The position numbers were made by a program, and so were the translations under genes. Positions 48,761-58,782 of a stretch of 64,000 nucleotides of DNA are shown here, in pieces. Each line of letters starts with the position of its first letter. Position 1 is the first letter of the stretch. A model generated the notes under the pieces. It made no database searches and was not told the origin of the DNA. It saw only the letters and a program-made list of their open reading frames with translations. This stretch comes from Dictyostelium discoideum. Lineage: Eukaryota. The stretch is taken from NCBI GenBank assembly GCA_000004695.1, contig CM000154.2:1216001-1280000 (forward strand), written 5' to 3'.

Positions 48761-51700
48761 ATGAAAATTATTTTTTTTATTTTTTTTATTTTTTTTTTTA
48801 TTCAATTGCTTTCAAACCGATATGTATTAGGTGAAAAATCAAATAATATTGATAATACTAAGGATGATAAATTAAGTCCTTTAAAACAAATATTACAAAA
48901 ACAAAGAAAACAAGCAGAAAATGAAAAGAATTTAATTAAAAATCTTGCAGAAATCATTTACACTGTGAAATCAATGGATCAATCACAATCTGAAACTGGT
49001 GATGTTTATATTGACCTATTCTTAGAGGATACCGATGGAAAGAATACTACAAAAATGGCAGAATCTATCTACAGTTTAATTGATACCTTGGAGAGATTCG
49101 ATATTGAAAAACGTCAATTACGATTAGAAAAAAAACAACGAAAACATAAACAATCTAAAACACAACAACAACAACTAGATTTAGTTAATGACAAATTCAT
49201 TTCAAAAAAATTACTGTCAATTGATATTGAAAATTTTGATTTTGAGAGAAATGTTGACAACAATCAACAACAACAAGATTTTGATATAATCGATCAAGAA
49301 ATCATTGATGGTTTACCAATAACTCATTATAAAGATGTTTATCTTCGAAATAAATTAATTTCAAAATCAGTTAATACTGACTCACAATCAAGTAATTCAG
49401 AAAATAATGAATCATCTTCAGTAGGTTTATCAATTGGTTCAACATCTTCACCAAACAGCTCACAAAAACCATCATTAGAATCGTCGTCAACAAACTCAAA
49501 ACCTCTTGAGCCACCCTCTCAAGAGTCACAAGGATCATCAGAAAATTCATCATCAATAGATTTATCTTCACAAGAATCTTACTCAAATGAACAGTCCTCA
49601 ATTGAGTCATTCTCACCAAGTTCCTCATCTAAAGAATCATCACAAGAATATTCTTCAAGTGAACCATCTCCTTCAAGTGGGCCATCATCATCATCATCAT
49701 TAAGTTCACAAGAATATTCTGCTGGTTCATCTTCAGTAAGCCTATCTTCAGTAGGTTCACACTCACAGGAATCTTCTGTAGGTTCATCTTTAGTAGGTTC
49801 ATCTTCTGTAGGTTCACAAGAATCTTTAGTAGGTTCATCTTCTGTAGGTTCACAAGAATCTTTAGTAGGTTCTTCTTCTGTAGGTTTACCTTCACAAGGA
49901 TCATCCTCAATAGATTCATCCTCACAAGAATCATCTTCAATAGGTTCAGTAGGTTCAACTTCACAAGAATCTTCAGTCGGTTCATCTTCACAAGAATCTT
50001 CAGTAAGTTCATTTTCAGTAGGTTCACCTTCACAAGGATCATCCTCAATAGGTTCATCCTCACAAGAATCATCTTCAATAGGTTCATCATCAGTAAGTTC
50101 ATCATCAAAAGGTTCGTCATCACAAAACAATGGACTAAGCTCTGAGCAACCTTTATCAGATAATGAATCAAATAGTGAATCAAACTCTTCACAATACATT
50201 TCAGAAAATGATTCAACTTCGTCATTACAAAATAATGACCCAAACTCATCATCACAAAACAATAATTCAAACTCTTTACAATCTGAATCTGAATCCTCTC
50301 AAAATGAATCAAATGAATCAAACTCTTTAGAAACCGAATCATCTTCAAATATTAAATCTAGTTCATCACAATCTGAAACATATCAATCAAGTTATGAATC
50401 TTCAAACTCATTTTCGTCTCAAAGTTCTGCTTTTGTATCATCTTCTTCTGAATCAAATGGTAGATCATCATCATCATCATCGTCATCATCCGCCTCCTCA
50501 TCATCATCATCACCAGAAGAACAATCATTTCCAATATCATCCTATTCAAATGATGAATGTGGAATTGAAGTTCAACAAATTATGTTAAAGAAATTAGGTA
50601 ATAATTTAGCATCATGGTCGATGAATATTATTAATTTAAAACCATTAATAGTTTTCGAACATATTTCAGTTTATAGAAAAGAGGCAATCACAAAACCAGA
50701 TAATTCAATTGGATATAATAAAGTGGATGTTTGGAATACCATTACTTCAAATGGTCGTCCTGAAGGAAAATTATTCTCATTTGTTTATATTGGAAATTTA
50801 GTTCCTGATAATTTCTTTATTTCTTGTGATAATAATACAACACCCCCAACTTTACCACCTACTCTATCACCAATTGATAATCATTTTTCATCATCTCAAC
50901 AACAATCCTCTTCACAATCCTCTTCATTTACACCATCCACATCTTCATCAACCCAAACTGAAGGATTAAAATGTAAATTGTCATATTCACAAAGAAGAAT
51001 TGGATATATTAGATTTGGAACTAAAATTAAATATATATGGTGGGTTGAAATTGCCAATAAAGGTGAAACAAGCATTGATAATCAATTATTTATTAAATTT
51101 GACCAAAATGTTGAAAATGTAAATGGATTAGATAAGGTTAATGTTGATGATGATAATAATAGTGAAGGTAGTTCAAGTATTGGAAGCAGTGATAGCATTA
51201 GAGATAGCATTAGTGATAGTGATAGTAGTGGTAGTGATAATAATATATATAAAGTTGGATCGAATGGTATACCATTAAGACCTGATAGTTTTTATGCATT
51301 TACATACTTTACACAATCAATTGTTCCAGCACAATTAGAATTTATAGATCATGATAATTGTGCTGAACCCATCGATTCGGGTAAACCATCACCAAATCAA
51401 CAAATTGGTACACCTGAAACTCAATGCTCAGCAGAAATTCATCAAGAGAAATTATCAACTAGTCTCACATTCTTTGGTTTCATTTCTTCATATGCTGTAA
51501 CAATTAAAAATACATCACCAGTTCAATCACTTTATGATTTAACAATCATATTTAAGAGTAGTATTAAAGAAGTAAATGGAATAGATCCATTAGTAATAAA
51601 TACATCAAGCTCAACAAATACTCAAATCTCTACAATCTCTGATTCAAATTATCAATTACCAGAATCATTACGTGTAATCGGTATAAAACCAAATCAACCT

Positions 51701-51796
51701 TTTGTTTTTTATTATGAAAAATATGGTTTCTTTTCATCTGATATTGAAATTCAAAATGAATTATGTTCACCAGAATACTTTTACAATAATAAATAA
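48761..51796 (+). CDS. Secreted Ser-rich mucin-like protein with internal tandem repeats and a conserved-looking Cys-containing C-terminal domain; single exon, 1011 aa
   Basis: ATG at 48761. The N-terminus is a hydrophobic signal peptide ([24 protein letters not shown]). A central domain of about 400 aa is >50% Ser and built from repeated SSVGSQESLVG-type units. The C-terminal ~400 aa is more complex (ECGIEVQQIMLKKLGNNLASW...GYIRFGTKIKYIWWVEIANKG...). I recognise no family. Confidence 0.6.
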   Translation: MKIIFFIFFIFFFIQLLSNRYVLGEKSNNIDNTKDDKLSPLKQILQKQRKQAENEKNLIKNLAEIIYTVKSMDQSQSETGDVYIDLFLEDTDGKNTTKMAESIYSLIDTLERFDIEKRQLRLEKKQRKHKQSKTQQQQLDLVNDKFISKKLLSIDIENFDFERNVDNNQQQQDFDIIDQEIIDGLPITHYKDVYLRNKLISKSVNTDSQSSNSENNESSSVGLSIGSTSSPNSSQKPSLESSSTNSKPLEPPSQESQGSSENSSSIDLSSQESYSNEQSSIESFSPSSSSKESSQEYSSSEPSPSSGPSSSSSLSSQEYSAGSSSVSLSSVGSHSQESSVGSSLVGSSSVGSQESLVGSSSVGSQESLVGSSSVGLPSQGSSSIDSSSQESSSIGSVGSTSQESSVGSSSQESSVSSFSVGSPSQGSSSIGSSSQESSSIGSSSVSSSSKGSSSQNNGLSSEQPLSDNESNSESNSSQYISENDSTSSLQNNDPNSSSQNNNSNSLQSESESSQNESNESNSLETESSSNIKSSSSQSETYQSSYESSNSFSSQSSAFVSSSSESNGRSSSSSSSSSASSSSSSPEEQSFPISSYSNDECGIEVQQIMLKKLGNNLASWSMNIINLKPLIVFEHISVYRKEAITKPDNSIGYNKVDVWNTITSNGRPEGKLFSFVYIGNLVPDNFFISCDNNTTPPTLPPTLSPIDNHFSSSQQQSSSQSSSFTPSTSSSTQTEGLKCKLSYSQRRIGYIRFGTKIKYIWWVEIANKGETSIDNQLFIKFDQNVENVNGLDKVNVDDDNNSEGSSSIGSSDSIRDSISDSDSSGSDNNIYKVGSNGIPLRPDSFYAFTYFTQSIVPAQLEFIDHDNCAEPIDSGKPSPNQQIGTPETQCSAEIHQEKLSTSLTFFGFISSYAVTIKNTSPVQSLYDLTIIFKSSIKEVNGIDPLVINTSSSTNTQISTISDSNYQLPESLRVIGIKPNQPFVFYYEKYGFFSSDIEIQNELCSPEYFYNNK
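49790..50100 (+). repeat. Coding tandem/dispersed repeats (36-bp unit GGTTCATCTTCTGTAGGTTCACAAGAATCTTTAGTA x2.5; ~54-bp unit TCACAAGGATCATCCTCAATAG.TTCATCCTCACAAGAATCATCTTCAATAGGTTCA x2) inside the Ser-rich gene
   Basis: Near-perfect direct repeats are visible in the nucleotide sequence. They explain the spurious long antisense ORFs 49579-50262 and 49629-50348. Confidence 0.8.
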
Positions 51797-51912: not shown

Positions 51913-53691
51913 TTAAAATGATTGTGAAACTAAAAGAGTAGCGGTTGTACTATTAAAACCATTAAAACCAAGTAATGTTTCAAATAATTCAATTTTACTA
52001 GGTGTTTTGTCAGCCTTAATATTAAATATTACTGATAAGGAACTCTCGCCACTTAAAGGATCTGTAAAACCACTTCCAATAGCACCACTTGGACTAAACC
52101 ATGAACGTTTACCTCTTTGTAAGAGCATATATTTAGTGGTACCATCAGTATATGTGATTTTAATAGTATAATCACAACCATTTGCATGACAATACCATGC
52201 ATATTTACTAACATTTGGTCTAATGTCAACCAATTGAGTTGAATTGGTTGGATCAAAAAAGGGCATAAGATTTCCTTTTGATTTAAAAATTGGATAAATT
52301 TGAGAAAGGTTGGCTGGTCCAACAAAACTGTGAGTGATGATGATTGTGTAAACATCTACATTTCTTTCAATTGGAAGACCATCATTTATACCATAGAGAC
52401 CATTGCTCTTGGTGGATGGAGTATAGGTTTCATATTTAAGAGTTGTTGTATTCCACTTTTTGTAACCAGTGGAAAAGGATTTATCATAAATGATTGAATC
52501 TTTGAAATAGTTTTGAATGGTAACTTCTTCATAATCTGCAAACATTGAGTATCTATAGCCTTGGGCTTGGTTACCTGCACCACCTTGCATTACAGATTGT
52601 TTAACGCAATTTTTATTTTGATCCAATATAAAACTTTTATTACAATTTTTATATGCACCAATATTTGATGGAATATTTACACTTAAAAATTCATTATGGT
52701 TCATATCAAAACCCCATTCTGATCCGAGCAAGCTTCCATCTACATATGGATAATTTCCACTCTTGTAACTATCACCGGCATGGGGCAAACCATAGCTATG
52801 ACCGGCCTCGTGGATGAAAATACCAGTATAGGAATAGTCTCCGGTACCCACGGAACCACCTCCTAAGCCTCCCCAAGGATCTGCATATTTACCATTGGCA
52901 CCCAAGTGAATAAGTGGAGCATAGTAAAGAACTGATGATGGACCTTCACCATTTGCACCTCTAATTCCACTCAAAATACCCAAAACGACACTCATAATCT
53001 CATAACCATCTCTTTTTTGGTCAGAGTTGGTTATTCTTAAACCTGGTAAATTATTTCTACCAGCTGGTAAAATTAAGTATGACCAATCAATTCTGGAAAT
53101 TGGGTGATTAAGTGCATTCAATGATGACAAAGACCATTTTTGAATTAATTCATCTGAAACATCTTTAGATATTGAACCAGTTACAGAGAGTGGTTGAGTA
53201 TTGGTATCGTTTGCACCAAATAAATAGAATGGAAGAAGCCACATATTTAAATTTGTTTCATGACCAATGTTTGGGAAAAAGAATTCAGATTTCAAGAGCA
53301 TAGTTGAAAATTGAATTTTCATTTTTGGTTTCATCCAATCTTTTGGAATTCTTATACTATGATGAACAGTGGAATATTTGGTACCATTGGATTCTGTTGG
53401 TGGCAATTTACTTGGATCATTAAGTGTTAATTTTCCCATTAATGAATCATCAACCCAAACTTTAACAGTATAGGAAAGAGTTTGATCTTGAAATTTGGCT
53501 AATAACAAAGACTCTCTGTTTGGAAGAATTTTTAATGTTACAGTATTATTTTTCCAACTTTTACCTTCAATTGGAAGTACATGTGTATTGGCAAATTTAA
53601 TATCACTGACTTGTAATCTTGAAGAACAGACTGCGCAATTAATATTTGTAATTAAATTTAAAAAAACTAATAAAATAATTAATATTTTCAT
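51913..53691 (-). CDS. Dictomallein-type secreted zinc metalloprotease (peptidase family M66, StcE-like); single exon, 592 aa
   Basis: A signal peptide MKILIILLVFLNLITNINCA is followed by the M66 zinc-binding motif GIFIHEAGHSYGLPHAGD (HExxHxxGxxH). Dictyostelium has a small dtml family of such proteins; which paralog this is cannot be told from the sequence. I take the start at 53691 from the ORF track; my own count put the ATG at 53690-88, so the boundary is +/-1. Confidence 0.7.
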   Translation of the reverse strand: MKILIILLVFLNLITNINCAVCSSRLQVSDIKFANTHVLPIEGKSWKNNTVTLKILPNRESLLLAKFQDQTLSYTVKVWVDDSLMGKLTLNDPSKLPPTESNGTKYSTVHHSIRIPKDWMKPKMKIQFSTMLLKSEFFFPNIGHETNLNMWLLPFYLFGANDTNTQPLSVTGSISKDVSDELIQKWSLSSLNALNHPISRIDWSYLILPAGRNNLPGLRITNSDQKRDGYEIMSVVLGILSGIRGANGEGPSSVLYYAPLIHLGANGKYADPWGGLGGGSVGTGDYSYTGIFIHEAGHSYGLPHAGDSYKSGNYPYVDGSLLGSEWGFDMNHNEFLSVNIPSNIGAYKNCNKSFILDQNKNCVKQSVMQGGAGNQAQGYRYSMFADYEEVTIQNYFKDSIIYDKSFSTGYKKWNTTTLKYETYTPSTKSNGLYGINDGLPIERNVDVYTIIITHSFVGPANLSQIYPIFKSKGNLMPFFDPTNSTQLVDIRPNVSKYAWYCHANGCDYTIKITYTDGTTKYMLLQRGKRSWFSPSGAIGSGFTDPLSGESSLSVIFNIKADKTPSKIELFETLLGFNGFNSTTATLLVSQSF

Positions 53692-53943: not shown

Positions 53944-54812
53944 AAAAATGGGTTTGATTAGGCTGTTATAATAAAAATTCCAAGATCAAATTTTTTTTAT
54001 TTTTATTTTTATTTTTTTTTTTTTTTTTGCAAAAATATCTTTTAAACGCATTGAAATTTAATGGTTTTTATAATTTCATCAAGGTAAATATATTGTAATA
54101 TGAAAAGACAAAAAATAAGTTGGGAAAAAGTGGTTCTTAATCAAGCTTTAGATATCTTCAACCATTTTCAATTATTTTTTCAAATAATAATTTGTGGATC
54201 ACATTACCGAGGTGAAAGTTTAACGAAAAAAAATATCACCAAAATTGTTTTTAATAAAAAAAAATAAAAAAAATAAAAAAAAAACTGTTTTTTTTTTGGG
54301 GTTAAATAGTTACTCCATACCTTTTTTTTTTAAAAAAAAAAAATCCATTTCTTTTTCGTATAAGGTAAGATCTAATTTATTTTTTTTGGTTTAATTTTTT
54401 TTTTCTTTTTTATTTTTAGATTATTTACAAACAGTTTTATTATTTTTTTTGGGAATATTAAAAAAAAAAATTTAAAATTTTATTACTTGAAAAAAACAGG
54501 ATAAAAAAGTAAACCCCCAAAAATCAAAATAAATTGATAATTTTAAAAATAAAATTAAAATAACAAAATGAATATTAATTTTAAAATTAATATTCATTTT
54601 GTTATTTTTTTTTATTGTGATTTTTTTTATTGATTGTATTATTAAAATGATTTTGTAAAAATTAAAGAATATTAAAAAAAATAAATATTAATAAATAGTT
54701 TTTTTTGTTGAAAATTGATGACCTTATTTCTATTTTTTGTGTGAAAAAATTGATTGTTGTTAGTAAAATGATTAGAAAAAAAATTTTAAAAAAAAAAAAA
54801 ATAAAAACTTAC

Positions 54813-55045
54813 AGAGAAAACTTTTAATTTAAAACTATTTAAATTTCCATTCTTTTTCTTTGAATAAATAAGAAAACCTGCAGCACCAAGGATTAAAACT
54901 CCAGCAACAACACCAATTGCAATACCAGCGATTGCACCACCTGATAATCCAGAATCTTTTGATGGTAATTCCATTGTTGGATCTGCTCCACAATATTTTT
55001 GTTGAAATTCTGTTTCTTTCAAACCTGAATATTTGTTTAATTCAA
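54813..55045 (-). CDS. Small type-I membrane protein, exon 3 (extracellular Cys region, TM helix, short Lys-rich tail)
   Basis: Acceptor aaaaaaaatag at 55047-46. It encodes (F)ELNKYSGLKETEFQQKYCGADPTMELPSKDSGLSGGAIAGIAIGVVAGVLILGAAGFLIYSKKKNGNLNSFKLKVFS. A GTAAGT donor lies at 54812. The gene then either reads through to a stop within the poly-T tract, or splices to a 6-nt terminal exon AAATAA at 54729-54724. Confidence 0.45.
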
Positions 55046-55155
55046 CTATTTTTTTTATTTAAATTTATTTTTATTATTAATATTATTAAGTAAAATTTTA
55101 AAATTTTTTTAACTTTTAAAATGTTATTGTTATTATTATTATTTTTTTTAATTAC

Positions 55156-55258
55156 ATTTTGGTGTGTTTTGTCCTGGATTTGACTCAACTTGGTTTGTGT
55201 AAATAACTTCTGGATAATAATTACAAGTATTTAATTCAACAACTTGTAATAAATTAGT
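55156..55258 (-). CDS. Small type-I membrane protein, exon 2
   Basis: Acceptor ttttttttatag at 55260-59. It encodes TNLLQVVELNTCNYYPEVIYTNQVESNPGQNTPK; the donor GTAATT at 55155 is phase 1, consistent with exon 3. Confidence 0.4.
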
Positions 55259-55327
55259 CTATAAAAAAAATAATAAAATTAATATCTTTTTTGTTTAGAA
55301 AAAAAAAAAAAAAAAAATTTTATTTAC

Positions 55328-55498
55328 CTTCCAATTATCAAATTTTATTTGGATTTCATTTGTTGGATAGTTTATTTCATAATTATCCATCCAATTTAAA
55401 AATGATTGATAAAGTATACCATTATCTGGTAATGATTGACAATTATTTAAATTAATAAAAAATAATATGAATATAGATAAACAAATAATAAATTTCAT
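55328..55498 (-). CDS. Small type-I membrane protein, exon 1 (signal peptide)
   Basis: ATG at 55498-96 gives MKFIICLSIFILFFINLNNCQSLPDNGILYQSFLNWMDNYEINYPTNEIQIKFDNWK; the donor GTAAAT at 55327 is phase 0. Confidence 0.45.
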
Positions 55499-56146
55499 TT
55501 TTACAAGACTTATTTTAGATAAAAGATTTTTATAAATTAATAAAAAAAAAAAAAATAAAAAAAAAAAATCAACTTTTTTTTTTTTTTTTTTTTTTTAATT
55601 GAATTACATTAATGTTATAAAAAAAAAATGTTCTAAATTTGAAGGGACTGGATGTATAAATATCTACCTTTTTCGAAATAAAAAGTCATTATTTTAAAAA
55701 CTCGAAAACCAAACCGTTAGATATTTTTGATCAAAACAAAATCATTTTAATCGATTTGAGGGGTTTTTATTTTGAAAAAAAAAAAAAAAAAAAAAAATTA
55801 AAAACATTTACCGGTAATAACAACAACCCCACCCATTTTTAATTTTTTTTTCATTTTTTCATTTTTGTTAAAAATTGGGTTCTAAAAAAAAAAAATAAAA
55901 AAATTAAAATATCATTTTTTCCGCATTTTGATTTCATTTTCTTAAATTATTTTATTTTATTTAATTTTGTTTCCATTTTAATTTTTTTTTCATTAATTTT
56001 ATTTTTAATTATTTATTTATTTATTTGTTTATTTATTTATTTATTTATTTTTTATTTATTTATTTATTTATATATTTATTTAATTAATTAATTAATAATT
56101 TATTTATTTGATTTTTAATTTTTTTTTTTTTAAAAAAATTGTTTAG

Positions 56147-56177
<31 letters not shown>

Positions 56178-56180
56178 AAA

Positions 56181-56573
56181 ATGAAATTTTTGGCTAAATT
56201 AATTTTTTTAATTTTAATAAGTTCATGTGTAAATAGCCAATTGACTCCAAATGAAATCACTTTAATTCAAAATTACCATAATCAATGGAGATCCAATCCT
56301 AATGGTCCAACTCCAGTAACACCAATTTCCGGATTAGTCTACAATGAATCAATTGCAACTGCACTTAATTTAAATCTTAGAAAATGTGACGATTCTTACA
56401 GTAATATGTATCAATACGCTCAAAATAGTGAATGGCAAACTTGGGCCACTCCAATTTCATCTTTTAATTTAACTTCCATTCTTGTAAATATTGGAGAATC
56501 TTCAAAATATTATGATTGGTCAATTGCTGGTTGTAATAATATTTCTTCCTCAAATTGTGAAATTTGGACAAAT
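56181..56573 (+). CDS. CAP/SCP/PR-1-domain + papain-family (C1A) cysteine protease fusion protein, exon 1 (signal peptide and CAP domain part 1)
   Basis: ATG at 56181 gives MKFLAKLIFLILISSCVNSQ (signal peptide). The CAP1 motif appears as LIQNYHNQWRSNP (HNxxR) and the exon runs on to ...SNCEIWTN. The donor GTAAGT at 56574 is phase 0. The upstream poly-A tract read as MFRKKKK in the ORF track is 5' UTR. Confidence 0.75.
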
Positions 56574-56675
56574 GTAAGTTATTTTTTTATTTTATTTTTT
56601 TTTTTTTTAGATTTATTTAAAATTATTTAAATATTAAAAATAAAATATTAACATATTAATAATAATTTTAAATAG

Positions 56676-56900
56676 GCTGTCTGGAATAAAAGTAAAAGTT
56701 TTGGATGCGCCAAATCAATTTGTGATGAAACTATTGTATTATCATGCTCCTATTATCCAGCTGGTGGATTTAAAGGTGTCCTCCCATACAAGCCAACCAG
56801 TATAAACCCTTCAGCTTCTACCACTCCAAAAATGCCAAATTTTTCATCTGGAAGTGTTGATTGGAGTGATTATCAAACACCAGTTAGAGACCAAGGTGAA
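56676..56900 (+). CDS. CAP + cysteine protease fusion, exon 2 (CAP domain part 2 and start of mature protease domain)
   Basis: Acceptor aaatag at 56674-75. It encodes AVWNKSKSFGCAKSICDETIVLSCSYYPAGGFKG (the CAP motifs VW..S..GCA and CxYxPxGN), then ...SGSVDWSDYQTPVRDQGE. This is the canonical N-terminus of a mature papain-like domain (LPxSVDWRxxGAVTPVKDQG). The donor is GTAAGT at 56901. Confidence 0.8.
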
Positions 56901-56987
56901 GTAAGTTTTTAAAAAAAATCTTTTTTTTTTTAATTTTATTATTTATATAATATTCTAAAATTATTATTATTTTTTTAAAAAAAATAG

Positions 56988-57454
56988 TGCAAATCATGTT
57001 GGGTTTTTGGTTCTTTGGCAGCATTGGAATCAAGATATTTAATTAAAAATGGTGTATCAGAAAAATCAACATTACACTTATCAGCTCAAAATGCAATGAA
57101 TTGTATTACAAGTGGTTGTGAATCTGGTTGGCCAGCAAATGTATTTGATTATTTTGAATCATCAGGAATTGCATTTGAAAAAGATTATCCATATGATGCA
57201 ATTGGTAGTGATAATTGTACTTCATCTTCTAACAAATTTGAATACTCTGGTTATGATTCAGTTGAAAATACTAAAGACTCTTTAATCCAAGAATTAAAGA
57301 ATGGACCTATCACTATTGCTCTTTACTCTGATACTGCATTCCAAAGTTATGCTGGTGGTATTTATGATTCTGTTGAAGAATATAAAGATGTAAACCACAT
57401 TGTATTATTAGTTGGTTATGATAAACCAACAGATTCTTGGAAAATTAAAAATTC
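56988..57454 (+). CDS. CAP + cysteine protease fusion, exon 3 (catalytic Cys and His)
   Basis: Acceptor aaaaaatag at 56986-87. It encodes CKSCWVFGSLAALESRYLIKNG (active-site Cys in C-SCW-F), ...NHIVLLVGYD (active-site His), and KPTDSWKIKNS. The donor GTAAGT at 57455 is phase 2. Confidence 0.8.
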
Positions 57455-57456
57455 GT

Positions 57457-57489
<33 letters not shown>

Positions 57490-57529
57490 AACAAAATAAT
57501 TTTTACTAACTTTTAATAATTATTTATAG

Positions 57530-57632
57530 ACTTGGAACAAAATGGGGAGAATTAGGATATGCTCGTATAACTGCATCAAATGATAAGCTTGGTATCTTAC
57601 TTTATAATTCTTTTTTCCCAAAATTTAAATAA
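57530..57632 (+). CDS. CAP + cysteine protease fusion, exon 4 (Asn/Trp region, C-terminus)
   Basis: Acceptor tatttatag at 57528-29. It encodes (S)LGTKWGELGYARITASNDKLGILLYNSFFPKFK*, corresponding to papain NSWGxxWGExGYxRI. The spliced protein is about 396 aa. Confidence 0.75.
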
Positions 57633-57821: not shown

Positions 57822-58782
57822 TTAATTTAATTGAAAATAATCTTGATTATCATCTTCATCCTCTAAAGGTAATTTATCAATTAAAGAACGAATGTAATTT
57901 GAATTTTTTGGATCAAGATCCAAAGCGGTATTTAAAGAATCTAAAGCTTTATCGAGTTCGCCCAATTGTTTATAACATTTACCTAAAAGAATGTAGATTG
58001 GAGTTTCTTTTGGTTCAATTTCTTTAAACTCTAATAATTGATCGATAGCATGATGATATTGTTGATTTGCAAAGAGGAAGGCAGCTAATTTGAATTTTGC
58101 AAAGGTATTCTTTGGTTGAATTTCAATTGAACGATATAGCATATCAATACCGTCTTGAATTTTATTTGGATTATGTTGTAGGGTCATACCTAAATAACAA
58201 CATAACACCGAACTGGACTCATTGATTGATAATGCTTTTCTAAAATGATACTCTGCTAAATTGTATTTCTCTTGACGATAATAAATCAATCCAATGCCAT
58301 AGAAGGCATTGTAATGACGTGGGTCACATCTAATGGCCATTCTAAATGCATTCAATGCTAACTCCAACTCGTCGTTCGCTAAATATTCATGACCACATAA
58401 TGTATAGGCATAGGTCATGTCTGGATCCAATTGAATGGCTCTTCTAAACAATTTGATTGCAGCTTCATGATCACGTTGTAAACTGAAACAATTGCCTACC
58501 ACTACCCAAGAGTAGGGTGACAATCTATCGAATTCTGAATATTTATGTGCAATATAACTTAATTCTGCATCTTCATTCATTTGCCATAACAATGTTGAAT
58601 ATAATTCCATACCCTCTAATCTATATGGTTCCATTTGTGATACCTCTTGAAATATTGATCTTGCCTCTTTATAATCAATTAATTCATGATATGCTTTTGC
58701 TACTTTTGTTAATACCCATCCAGTTCTATATTGTTCTTCTGATAATCTTTTAAATGATTCAATTGCTTCTTTACATAAATAT
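57822..58782 (-). CDS. anapc3: Anaphase-promoting complex subunit 3 (CDC27/APC3), exon 2 of 2 (C-terminal TPR array)
   Basis: Acceptor attaaag at 58784-83. It encodes (L)YLCKEAIESFKRLSEEQYRTGWVLTKVAKAYHELIDYKEARSIFQEVSQMEPYRLEGMELYSTLLWQMNED...WVVVGNCFSLQRDHEAAIKLFRRAIQLDPDMTYAYTLCGHEY...RHYNAFYGIGLIYYRQEKYNLAEYHFRKALSINESSSVLCCYLG... This is collinear with human CDC27 (WCAAGNCFSLQREHDIAIKFFQRAIQVDPNYAYAYTLLGHEF...RHYNAWYGLGMIYYKQEKFSLAEMHFQKALDINPQSSVLLCHIG). The stop is at 57822-24. Confidence 0.9.

Follow-up and report, generated by a model that had tools for sequence, protein, structure and literature searches.

A CAP-papain protease gene of Dictyostelium discoideum and its divergent neighbour for a membrane-anchored I29 domain: a candidate split zymogen

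Papain-family proteases are the textbook enzymes that are folded and kept latent by a covalent I29 propeptide. The gene DDB_G0288221 of Dictyostelium discoideum encodes a papain-family (C1A) protease domain joined to an N-terminal CAP domain, with no I29 propeptide in the polypeptide. The gene lies at positions 56,181 to 57,632 of a stretch of 64,000 nucleotides (assembly GCA_000004695.1, contig CM000154.2, positions 1,216,001 to 1,280,000), which is called the window here; coordinates refer to it unless another locus is named. An I29 domain is predicted in a separate, membrane-anchored protein whose gene lies directly upstream in the divergent orientation, and this head-to-head pair is conserved among dictyostelids. 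The locus is probably a two-gene module, a split zymogen in which the membrane-anchored I29 propeptide would be supplied in trans and would bind the protease there.

The window is very AT-rich (22.7% G+C), and its introns are short and of the GT..AG type. The exons 56181-56573, 56676-56900, 56988-57454, and 57530-57632, all separated by GT..AG introns, are spliced on the plus strand into a coding sequence of 1188 nt and a protein of 395 residues. This product is an exact match to XP_636852.1/EAL63341.1 of D. discoideum AX4 (DDB_G0288221, UniProt Q54J84), and the four-exon gene that an earlier note had drawn on this DNA is thus the annotated one. The domain order is signal peptide, CAP, a Ser/Thr/Pro linker of 22-29 residues, and C1A. 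The signal peptide is predicted from the hydrophobic N-terminus only. The features of the gene are as follows.

56181..56573, plus strand: exon 1, with the start codon, the predicted signal peptide (residues 1-19, MKFLAKLIFLILISSCVNS), and CAP residues 20-131 including HNQWR.
56676..56900, plus strand: exon 2, with the CAP C-terminus (residues 132-168, GCAKSIC...CSYYPAGGFKGVLPY), the linker (residues 169-190), and the first 16 C1A residues SVDWSDYQTPVRDQGE, in a single frame.
56988..57454, plus strand: exon 3, with the papain-family core (residues 207-361).
56997-56999, 57396-57398, and 57450-57452, plus strand: catalytic codons of exon 3, for Cys210, His343, and Asn361.
57530..57632, plus strand: exon 4, with the C-terminal part of C1A (LGTKWGELGY...FPKFK) and the TAA stop.
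56238..56786, plus strand: CAP/SCP/PR-1-like domain (residues 20-168), split by intron 1 and ending in the CAPE-like CSYY/PAGGFKGVLPY.
56787..56852, plus strand: Ser/Thr/Pro-rich linker (residues 169-190, KPTSINPSASTTPKMPNFSSG), predicted to be disordered.
56853..57629, plus strand: papain-family C1A domain (residues 191-395), split by introns 2 and 3, with Gln204 at 56892-56894.

In the protease half, Peptidase_C1 (PF00112) covers residues 191-384 at 159.5 bits (cut-off 20.7) and an E-value of 1.7e-46, and the C1 hidden Markov model (HMM) also matches the exon-2 fragment 56676-56909. A phmmer search of the PDB places this half next to bromelain and cathepsin K (E 3e-29), and it also aligns with cathepsins L and S and the papain-like plant enzymes. 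The AlphaFold2 model of the C1A half has a predicted local distance difference test score (pLDDT) mostly of 85-96, and its Foldseek comparison gives a target-normalised template-modelling score of 0.80-0.88 and a root-mean-square deviation of about 2-3 Å to mature cathepsins L, S, and K and to plant proteases. By alignment, Gln204, Cys210, His343, and Asn361 correspond to papain Gln19, Cys25, His159, and Asn175. In a family alignment of 28 sequences the Gln and His are invariant, and the Cys and Asn are at least 90% conserved. The earlier note had listed a catalytic Cys, His, and Asn together with a Trp; the first three are intact, and the position of papain Trp177, which is not a defining residue, is Leu in DDB_G0288221 (KNSLG).

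The Pfam scan of the 395-residue protein finds CAP and Peptidase_C1 and no match to Inhibitor_I29 (PF08246) even at E<=1, which agrees with the earlier claim that the polypeptide lacks this propeptide; a cryptic cis I29 in DDB_G0288221 is rejected on the same scan. A cis I29 was likewise not found in 10 further proteins of the CAP:C1A family. The C1A domain is thus predicted to be cathepsin-L-like, catalytically competent by its intact residues, and made without a propeptide.

The I29 domain is found in trans. It was first seen as a Pfam match in the divergent upstream gene of the orthologous locus of D. firmibasis, and the corresponding gene of D. discoideum lies 682 bp upstream of DDB_G0288221 at 54724-55498 on the minus strand. 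Its exons (55498-55328, 55258-55156, 55045-54813, and 54729-54724) encode 170 residues. A cryptic I29 propeptide had been named beforehand as a finding that would speak against a CAP domain in the pro-region position; none is present in cis, and one is present as a separate, membrane-anchored neighbour protein, with the following parts.

55328..55498, minus strand: exon 1 of the I29 partner, with the signal peptide and the first I29 helices LPDNGILYQSFLNWMDNYEINYPTNEIQIKFDNWK.
55156..55258, minus strand: exon 2, with the end of helix 2 and a family-specific insert.
54813..55045, minus strand: exon 3, with the I29 strand and helix 3 FELNKYSGLKETEFQQKYCG, a juxtamembrane segment, the transmembrane helix, and a Lys-rich tail.
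54864-54935, minus strand: transmembrane helix, residues 129-152, Kyte-Doolittle value above 2.2.
54724..54729, minus strand: terminal micro-exon, Lys and stop, the least certain exon.

Inhibitor_I29 (PF08246) matches the partner at 37.5 bits (cut-off 24.4) over profile positions 1-59 of 59, and it matches the orthologues and the partners of paralogues at 38-45 bits. The partner has a hydrophobic N-terminal signal and a single transmembrane helix. A profile of the ectodomain matches the propeptide of Toxoplasma gondii cathepsin L best (3f75_P, E 5.6e-8), and the next matches, to 6e-5, are procaricain, pro-bromelain, pro-cathepsin H, and pro-papain. The alignment with these true propeptides extends over helices 1-2 and over the strand and helix-3 motif xLNxFSDLxxxEF, with the family-specific insert in between. 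Common additions of the partners are a G(A/V)DA(S/T)LA segment, the transmembrane helix LSTGAI(V/I)GIAVGG, and a KKKR stop-transfer sequence; a C-terminal HHSITAR motif occurs in all except the window-type paralogue. The partner is thus predicted to be a membrane protein of type I with a cathepsin-propeptide (I29) domain as its ectodomain. The micro-exon model was picked by analogy with the orthologues of D. firmibasis and D. dimigraforme, which end in KKGH. The C-terminus reads ...KVFSK before the stop in D. discoideum and ...KVFPKKGH before the stop in D. firmibasis (locus L001, 2612-2630) and D. dimigraforme, so that the stop comes earlier and three residues fewer are encoded.

Eleven CAP:C1A loci from 10 species, the D. 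discoideum window included, were compared. They comprise those of D. discoideum, D. firmibasis, D. purpureum, P. violaceum, C. fasciculata (two loci), Heterostelium album, Tieghemostelium lacteum, and Acytostelium subglobosum, the gmsA locus, taken from D. dimigraforme, and a third paralogue of D. citrinum. A gene that encodes only I29, on the minus strand, lies directly upstream of the CAP:C1A gene, on the plus strand, and this is clear in 10 of the 11 loci. The remaining flanking genes are unrelated between species, and the pairing is therefore not a matter of general synteny. The two proteins have also diverged together: the pairwise identities of the I29 ectodomains correlate with those of the cognate C1A domains (r = 0.94) and with those of the CAP domains (r = 0.97). 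Since the paralogue relationships of partner and protease agree, the two genes were duplicated together in the D. discoideum lineage. Purifying selection acts on both, with ratios of nonsynonymous to synonymous substitutions (dN/dS) between D. discoideum and D. firmibasis of 0.117 for the whole CAP:C1A gene (0.18 for CAP and 0.07 for C1A) and 0.166 for the whole I29 partner.

Cathepsin-L-like enzymes generally depend on the proregion for folding. Together with the conserved pairing, the correlated divergence, and the precedent of free-standing I29 proteins, this is the ground on which a split zymogen is preferred. Under this reading the two genes would be co-expressed, probably from a shared bidirectional promoter, and the CAP:C1A and I29-transmembrane proteins would both enter the endoplasmic reticulum. 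The I29 ectodomain would bind C1A in trans as a cis-propeptide does; it would act as a foldase, as an inhibitor, or as both, and it would also anchor the protease at the membrane until release or displacement. The CAP domain would remain on a flexible tether as a ligand-binding or targeting module and would not be the inhibitor.

Classical zymogens such as procathepsin L, procathepsin K, propapain, and procaricain contain the same two homologous modules, I29 and C1A. They are fused there, whereas here they belong to two polypeptides from divergent genes. In further contrast to the classical forms, the I29 module is predicted to be membrane-anchored and carries an insert, and the N-terminus of the protease is occupied by CAP. 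The partner resembles the free-standing I29 inhibitors, namely mouse CTLA-2alpha and CTLA-2beta, Drosophila crammer, and Bombyx BCPI, in being propeptide-like and encoded apart from a protease. These inhibitors are soluble, and their target enzymes keep propeptides of their own. To our knowledge, none of them is gene-paired with a protease that lacks a propeptide. The dictyostelid partner differs from them in its transmembrane anchor and in its adjacent, propeptide-less protease. CTLA-2alpha, crammer, and BCPI inhibit cathepsin-L-like enzymes in trans (PMC4089206).

Several observations weigh against a split zymogen. In D. citrinum (locus L008) the neighbour is recognised only by the HMM of its own family, and in the third C. 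fasciculata paralogue, DFA_01006 (locus L010), it is only marginally I29-like (E 0.008). The I29 domain of the partner holds an insert of 20-40 residues that classical propeptides do not have. The window partner has neither the cytoplasmic HHSITAR tail nor the insert of about 21 residues that GmsA-type partners keep, and its function may have drifted for this reason. The AlphaFold2 model of the partner (D. firmibasis orthologue, 2 sequences) has a pLDDT of 39.8 and is too poor to use, with a helix pattern compatible with a three-helix I29. A search for protein homologues of the partner returns only the orthologues of D. firmibasis and D. dimigraforme and no D. discoideum protein; the gene may be unannotated in AX4 or modelled differently.

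Two loci of C. fasciculata show variants of the arrangement. At L010 (3322-4154) the divergent upstream neighbour has only a vestigial I29-like end AYSDTSYDDFARGHLG, which is followed by a transmembrane helix. This neighbour may represent a partner that is decaying or has diverged strongly. At L006 (655-6434) the I29-only gene lies 55 bp from the CAP:C1A gene, and a second, tandem CAP:C1A copy, DFA_08911, follows. A single I29 gene thus precedes a tandem CAP:C1A pair, and one propeptide gene seems to serve two protease genes.

The I29 protein could instead be a general shield or regulator at the cell surface, directed against cathepsin-L-like proteases that are the cell's own secreted or lysosomal enzymes or come from prey, and could share with its neighbour the promoter only. 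Membrane anchoring suits protection, another C1 gene is found near the H. album locus (L007), and free-standing I29 proteins elsewhere are broad inhibitors of cathepsin L (PMC4089206). Against a general shield stand the persistence of the pairing over hundreds of millions of years and through one or more duplications, with no other synteny left, and the covariation of partner and protease identities (r = 0.94). Moreover, at the pair loci only the paired C1A genes are without a cis propeptide. This role is considered unlikely.

The earlier note had proposed that the CAP domain itself replaces the I29 pro-region. It would then fold back over the active site of C1A, in the role of an autoinhibitor or of an intramolecular chaperone, and would later be removed or displaced. 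CAP sits at the N-terminal propeptide position of a protein without cis I29, it is under purifying selection (omega 0.18), and in H. album PPL_11865 it abuts C1A with almost no linker. The connector, a low-complexity Ser/Thr/Pro stretch predicted to be disordered, is a fixed 29 residues in the DDB_G0288221 paralogue and 42-97 residues of mucin-like PTTPAPTTPK repeats in the GmsA orthologues. In the AlphaFold2 model its pLDDT is below 50 (residues 159-165 and 172-179), and the predicted template-modelling score (pTM) of the whole protein is 0.58, so that the model gives no confident pose of CAP against the protease. The connector therefore looks like a flexible tether in the model, probably O-glycosylated, rather than part of a docked inhibitor. 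A dedicated I29 domain is moreover encoded next door in 10 of the 11 loci, and we know of no precedent for CAP domains that inhibit C1A enzymes. Autoinhibition by CAP has accordingly lost most of its ground and is regarded as quite improbable.

It is also very doubtful that the C1A domain needs no prodomain at all, folds alone, and is secreted in a constitutively active form that only the timing of expression limits, with the neighbouring gene irrelevant. Proregion-dependent folding is the general rule for cathepsin-L-like enzymes, and the conserved adjacency and co-evolution of the two genes speak against an irrelevant neighbour. Such an enzyme would agree with the intact catalytic residues, with the missing cis propeptide, and with the lack of a clear partner at C. 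fasciculata L010, and also with the reported tight stage and mating-type specificity of the related, gamete-specific gene gmsA (PMC4910948).

That the CAP exons and the protease exons are two adjacent genes merged by the gene model has next to no probability, and no evidence in its favour was found. Exon 2 runs in one open frame from the end of CAP (CSYYPAGG) through the linker into the start of the protease (SVDWSDYQTPVRDQGE). In D. citrinum, a paralogue combines CAP and C1A within a single intronless open reading frame (ORF), and transcriptome-derived ORFs of relatives (Trinity, MMETSP) hold both domains. The GmsA entry BAC06345.1 has the same CAP:C1A layout, and all three intron positions are shared with the D. 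firmibasis orthologue. The single gene first read from the sequence is upheld.

The CAP domain of DDB_G0288221 is a divergent CAP by its motifs. CAP (PF00188) matches residues 31-157 at 31.7 bits (cut-off 21.1, E 3e-7) over profile positions 2-117 of 117. A profile of the family CAP domains matches Na-ASP-1, PR-1, SmVAL4, P14a, GLIPR1, Ves v 5, and the snake CRISPs with E-values of 3e-13 to 1e-6. All four CAP motifs had been reported beforehand. With PROSITE-type patterns for CAP1-CAP4, only CAP3/HNxxR (HNQWR) matches strictly, and CAP1 (EIWTNAVWNKS), CAP2 (VLSCSYYPAGGF), and CAP4 (NSEW, the GEN motif) fail the strict patterns and are degenerate but recognisable. The His/Glu/Glu/His cation-binding tetrad is incomplete: the CAP1 His (RHYTQVVW in PR-1) is Ile128 here and Leu, Ser, or Pro in relatives. 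The His of HNxxR and the Glu of the GEN-like motif are invariant in the family CAP alignment. The AlphaFold2 CAP half is of mixed confidence, with blocks of pLDDT 39-92, and no CAP structure occurs among the top 50 PDB matches that Foldseek lists for the whole model, all of which belong to the C1A half (mature proteases and procathepsins).

The C-terminal end of the CAP domain resembles a motif of the plant PR-1/CAPE systems, which include XCP1 and the maize CatB3 acting on Ustilago PR-1La. The CNYx/PxGNxxxxxPY CAPE motif of plants and fungi is cut by papain-like proteases (PMC10505147), and the CSYY/PAGGFKGVLPY of DDB_G0288221 is spaced like it. The Asn of the motif is Gly here, and the likeness is a resemblance only. 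In the plant and fungal systems substrate and protease are separate proteins, whereas both are present here in one polypeptide. Given the CAPE-like spacing and the cutting of the CAPE motif by papain-like enzymes, self-processing at the CSYY/PAGG site is conceivable.

The closest relatives of DDB_G0288221 are orthologues in the D. discoideum complex, with 86-99% identity and the same CAP and C1A domains. The named paralogue GmsA matches at E 1e-135, with 59% identity over the C1A half in a BLASTP local alignment; pairwise identity to the GmsA orthologue of D. dimigraforme is 59% in C1A and 56% in CAP. A word-index protein search with the CAP domain alone gives no matches, its own family included, and an exhaustive profile search was used instead, the matches of which were screened with a local C1 HMM and Pfam. 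It finds about 20 further clusters at 50% identity in which CAP is followed by C1A without I29. Their sources are Synstelium, Heterostelium, Acytostelium, Tieghemostelium, Cavenderia, and a number of transcriptomes. The CAP:C1A family is present in all sampled dictyostelid groups, and DDB_G0288221, with homology over both domains and the shared architecture, is a member of the GmsA family. The search for the same architecture in other amoebozoans, which had been suggested at the outset, thus gives a positive result across Dictyostelia. The very long proteins P0050 (2254 residues), P0059, P0060, P0064, and P0070 have 5-10 tandem CAP domains close to those of the DDB_G0288221 family.

GmsA has the same layout of signal peptide, CAP, linker, and C1A without cis I29, and the gmsA locus of D. 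dimigraforme has its own head-to-head I29 partner. In contrast to DDB_G0288221, its linker is 42-97 residues of PTTPAPTTPK rather than 29 residues, it keeps Trp177 (KNSWG) in place of the Leu, and its partner has a longer tail that ends in HHSITAR-like residues, which the window partner does not. The PTTPAPTTPK repeat is minisatellite-like, with a copy number that varies by strain and species and a total protein length of 428-458 residues. The gene gmsA is reported to be gamete- and mating-type-specific, tightly stage-specific, and not essential for mating (PMC4910948). By analogy with it, the DDB_G0288221 pair may have a role in mating, and the I29 protein is a concrete candidate partner for GmsA, which is among the few gamete- and mating-type-specific proteins of Dictyostelium.

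The architecture had been put forward as unusual, and this is weakened by its presence in the paralogue GmsA and in many dictyostelid genes. The CAP-C1A fusion itself is already in databases and is of modest interest. Slime moulds were remarked to have predicted extracellular CAP:C1A proteins, in this domain order, in a 2023 paper on Aphanomyces proteases (PMC10084794). The C1A:CAP proteases of Aphanomyces euteiches are extracellular papain-like enzymes fused to CAP, as is predicted for DDB_G0288221. In contrast, their order is opposite, with CAP at the C-terminus, and no trans I29 partner is described for them (PMC10084794). The two fusions are presumably of independent origin.

Literature searches on DDB_G0288221 found no paper and no expression data, and those on the neighbouring gene identifiers and on I29 with Dictyostelium found no paper on the gene pair. 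No earlier description seems to exist of an I29 partner that is membrane-anchored, conserved, and encoded by a divergent gene. It is this partner that turns an ordinary domain fusion into a possible new variant of zymogen organisation. If the locus is a split zymogen, it would be a natural experiment in which the propeptide has moved to a separate, membrane-anchored product whose gene has remained next to that of the protease across speciation and duplication. It would then bear on the purpose of a prodomain, be it folding, inhibition, or localisation, and on possible ways of rewiring the control of zymogens.

As to the origin of the pair, one speculation is that the 5' portion of a procathepsin gene ancestor, with signal peptide and I29, was inverted, which would give the head-to-head orientation. 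A more far-reaching proposal combines this inversion with a propeptide that has become a membrane receptor, inhibitor, and foldase and displays at the cell surface a CAP-tagged protease that would otherwise be soluble, with gamete recognition or fusion in the GmsA lineage and possibly a self-clipped, CAPE-like signalling peptide. This combination is tentative and is held to be rather unlikely as a whole.

The region between the two genes may contain their common control elements.

55499..56180, no strand: intergenic region of the divergent pair, 682 bp, AT-rich, putative bidirectional promoter.

It is 87% A+T and poorly conserved except for a block of about 135 bp, 55661-55797, which can be aligned with D. 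firmibasis over nearly its full length (TATCTACC...AAACTCGAAAA...GTTAGATAT...TTAATCGAT...). No promoter motif is common to the paralogous intergenic regions, and only the orthologous region of D. firmibasis has the block. This block may serve the divergent pair as a promoter or other regulatory element.

Profile scans rejected any further C1 or I29 gene in the window, and nothing was detected in it by Rfam and tRNA scans. Three neighbouring ORFs are of some interest. An intronless ORF of 592 residues at 51913-53691 (minus strand) combines a signal peptide with a complete Peptidase_M66 domain (E 2.7e-133) of a dictomallein/StcE-like metalloprotease; a Peptidase_M66 neighbour is also present at the D. 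firmibasis locus. An ORF of 1011 residues at 48761-51796 (plus strand) starts with a signal-like sequence and contains Ser-rich, low-complexity repeats (SSQESS/VGSSS) that add up to hundreds of residues, with the look of a mucin-like secreted or surface protein. Downstream of DDB_G0288221, the convergent ORF of 270 residues at 57822-58634 (minus strand) is the last exon of a larger gene, contains TPR repeats with an ANAPC3 match, and is probably the C-terminus of a CDC27/APC3-like subunit.

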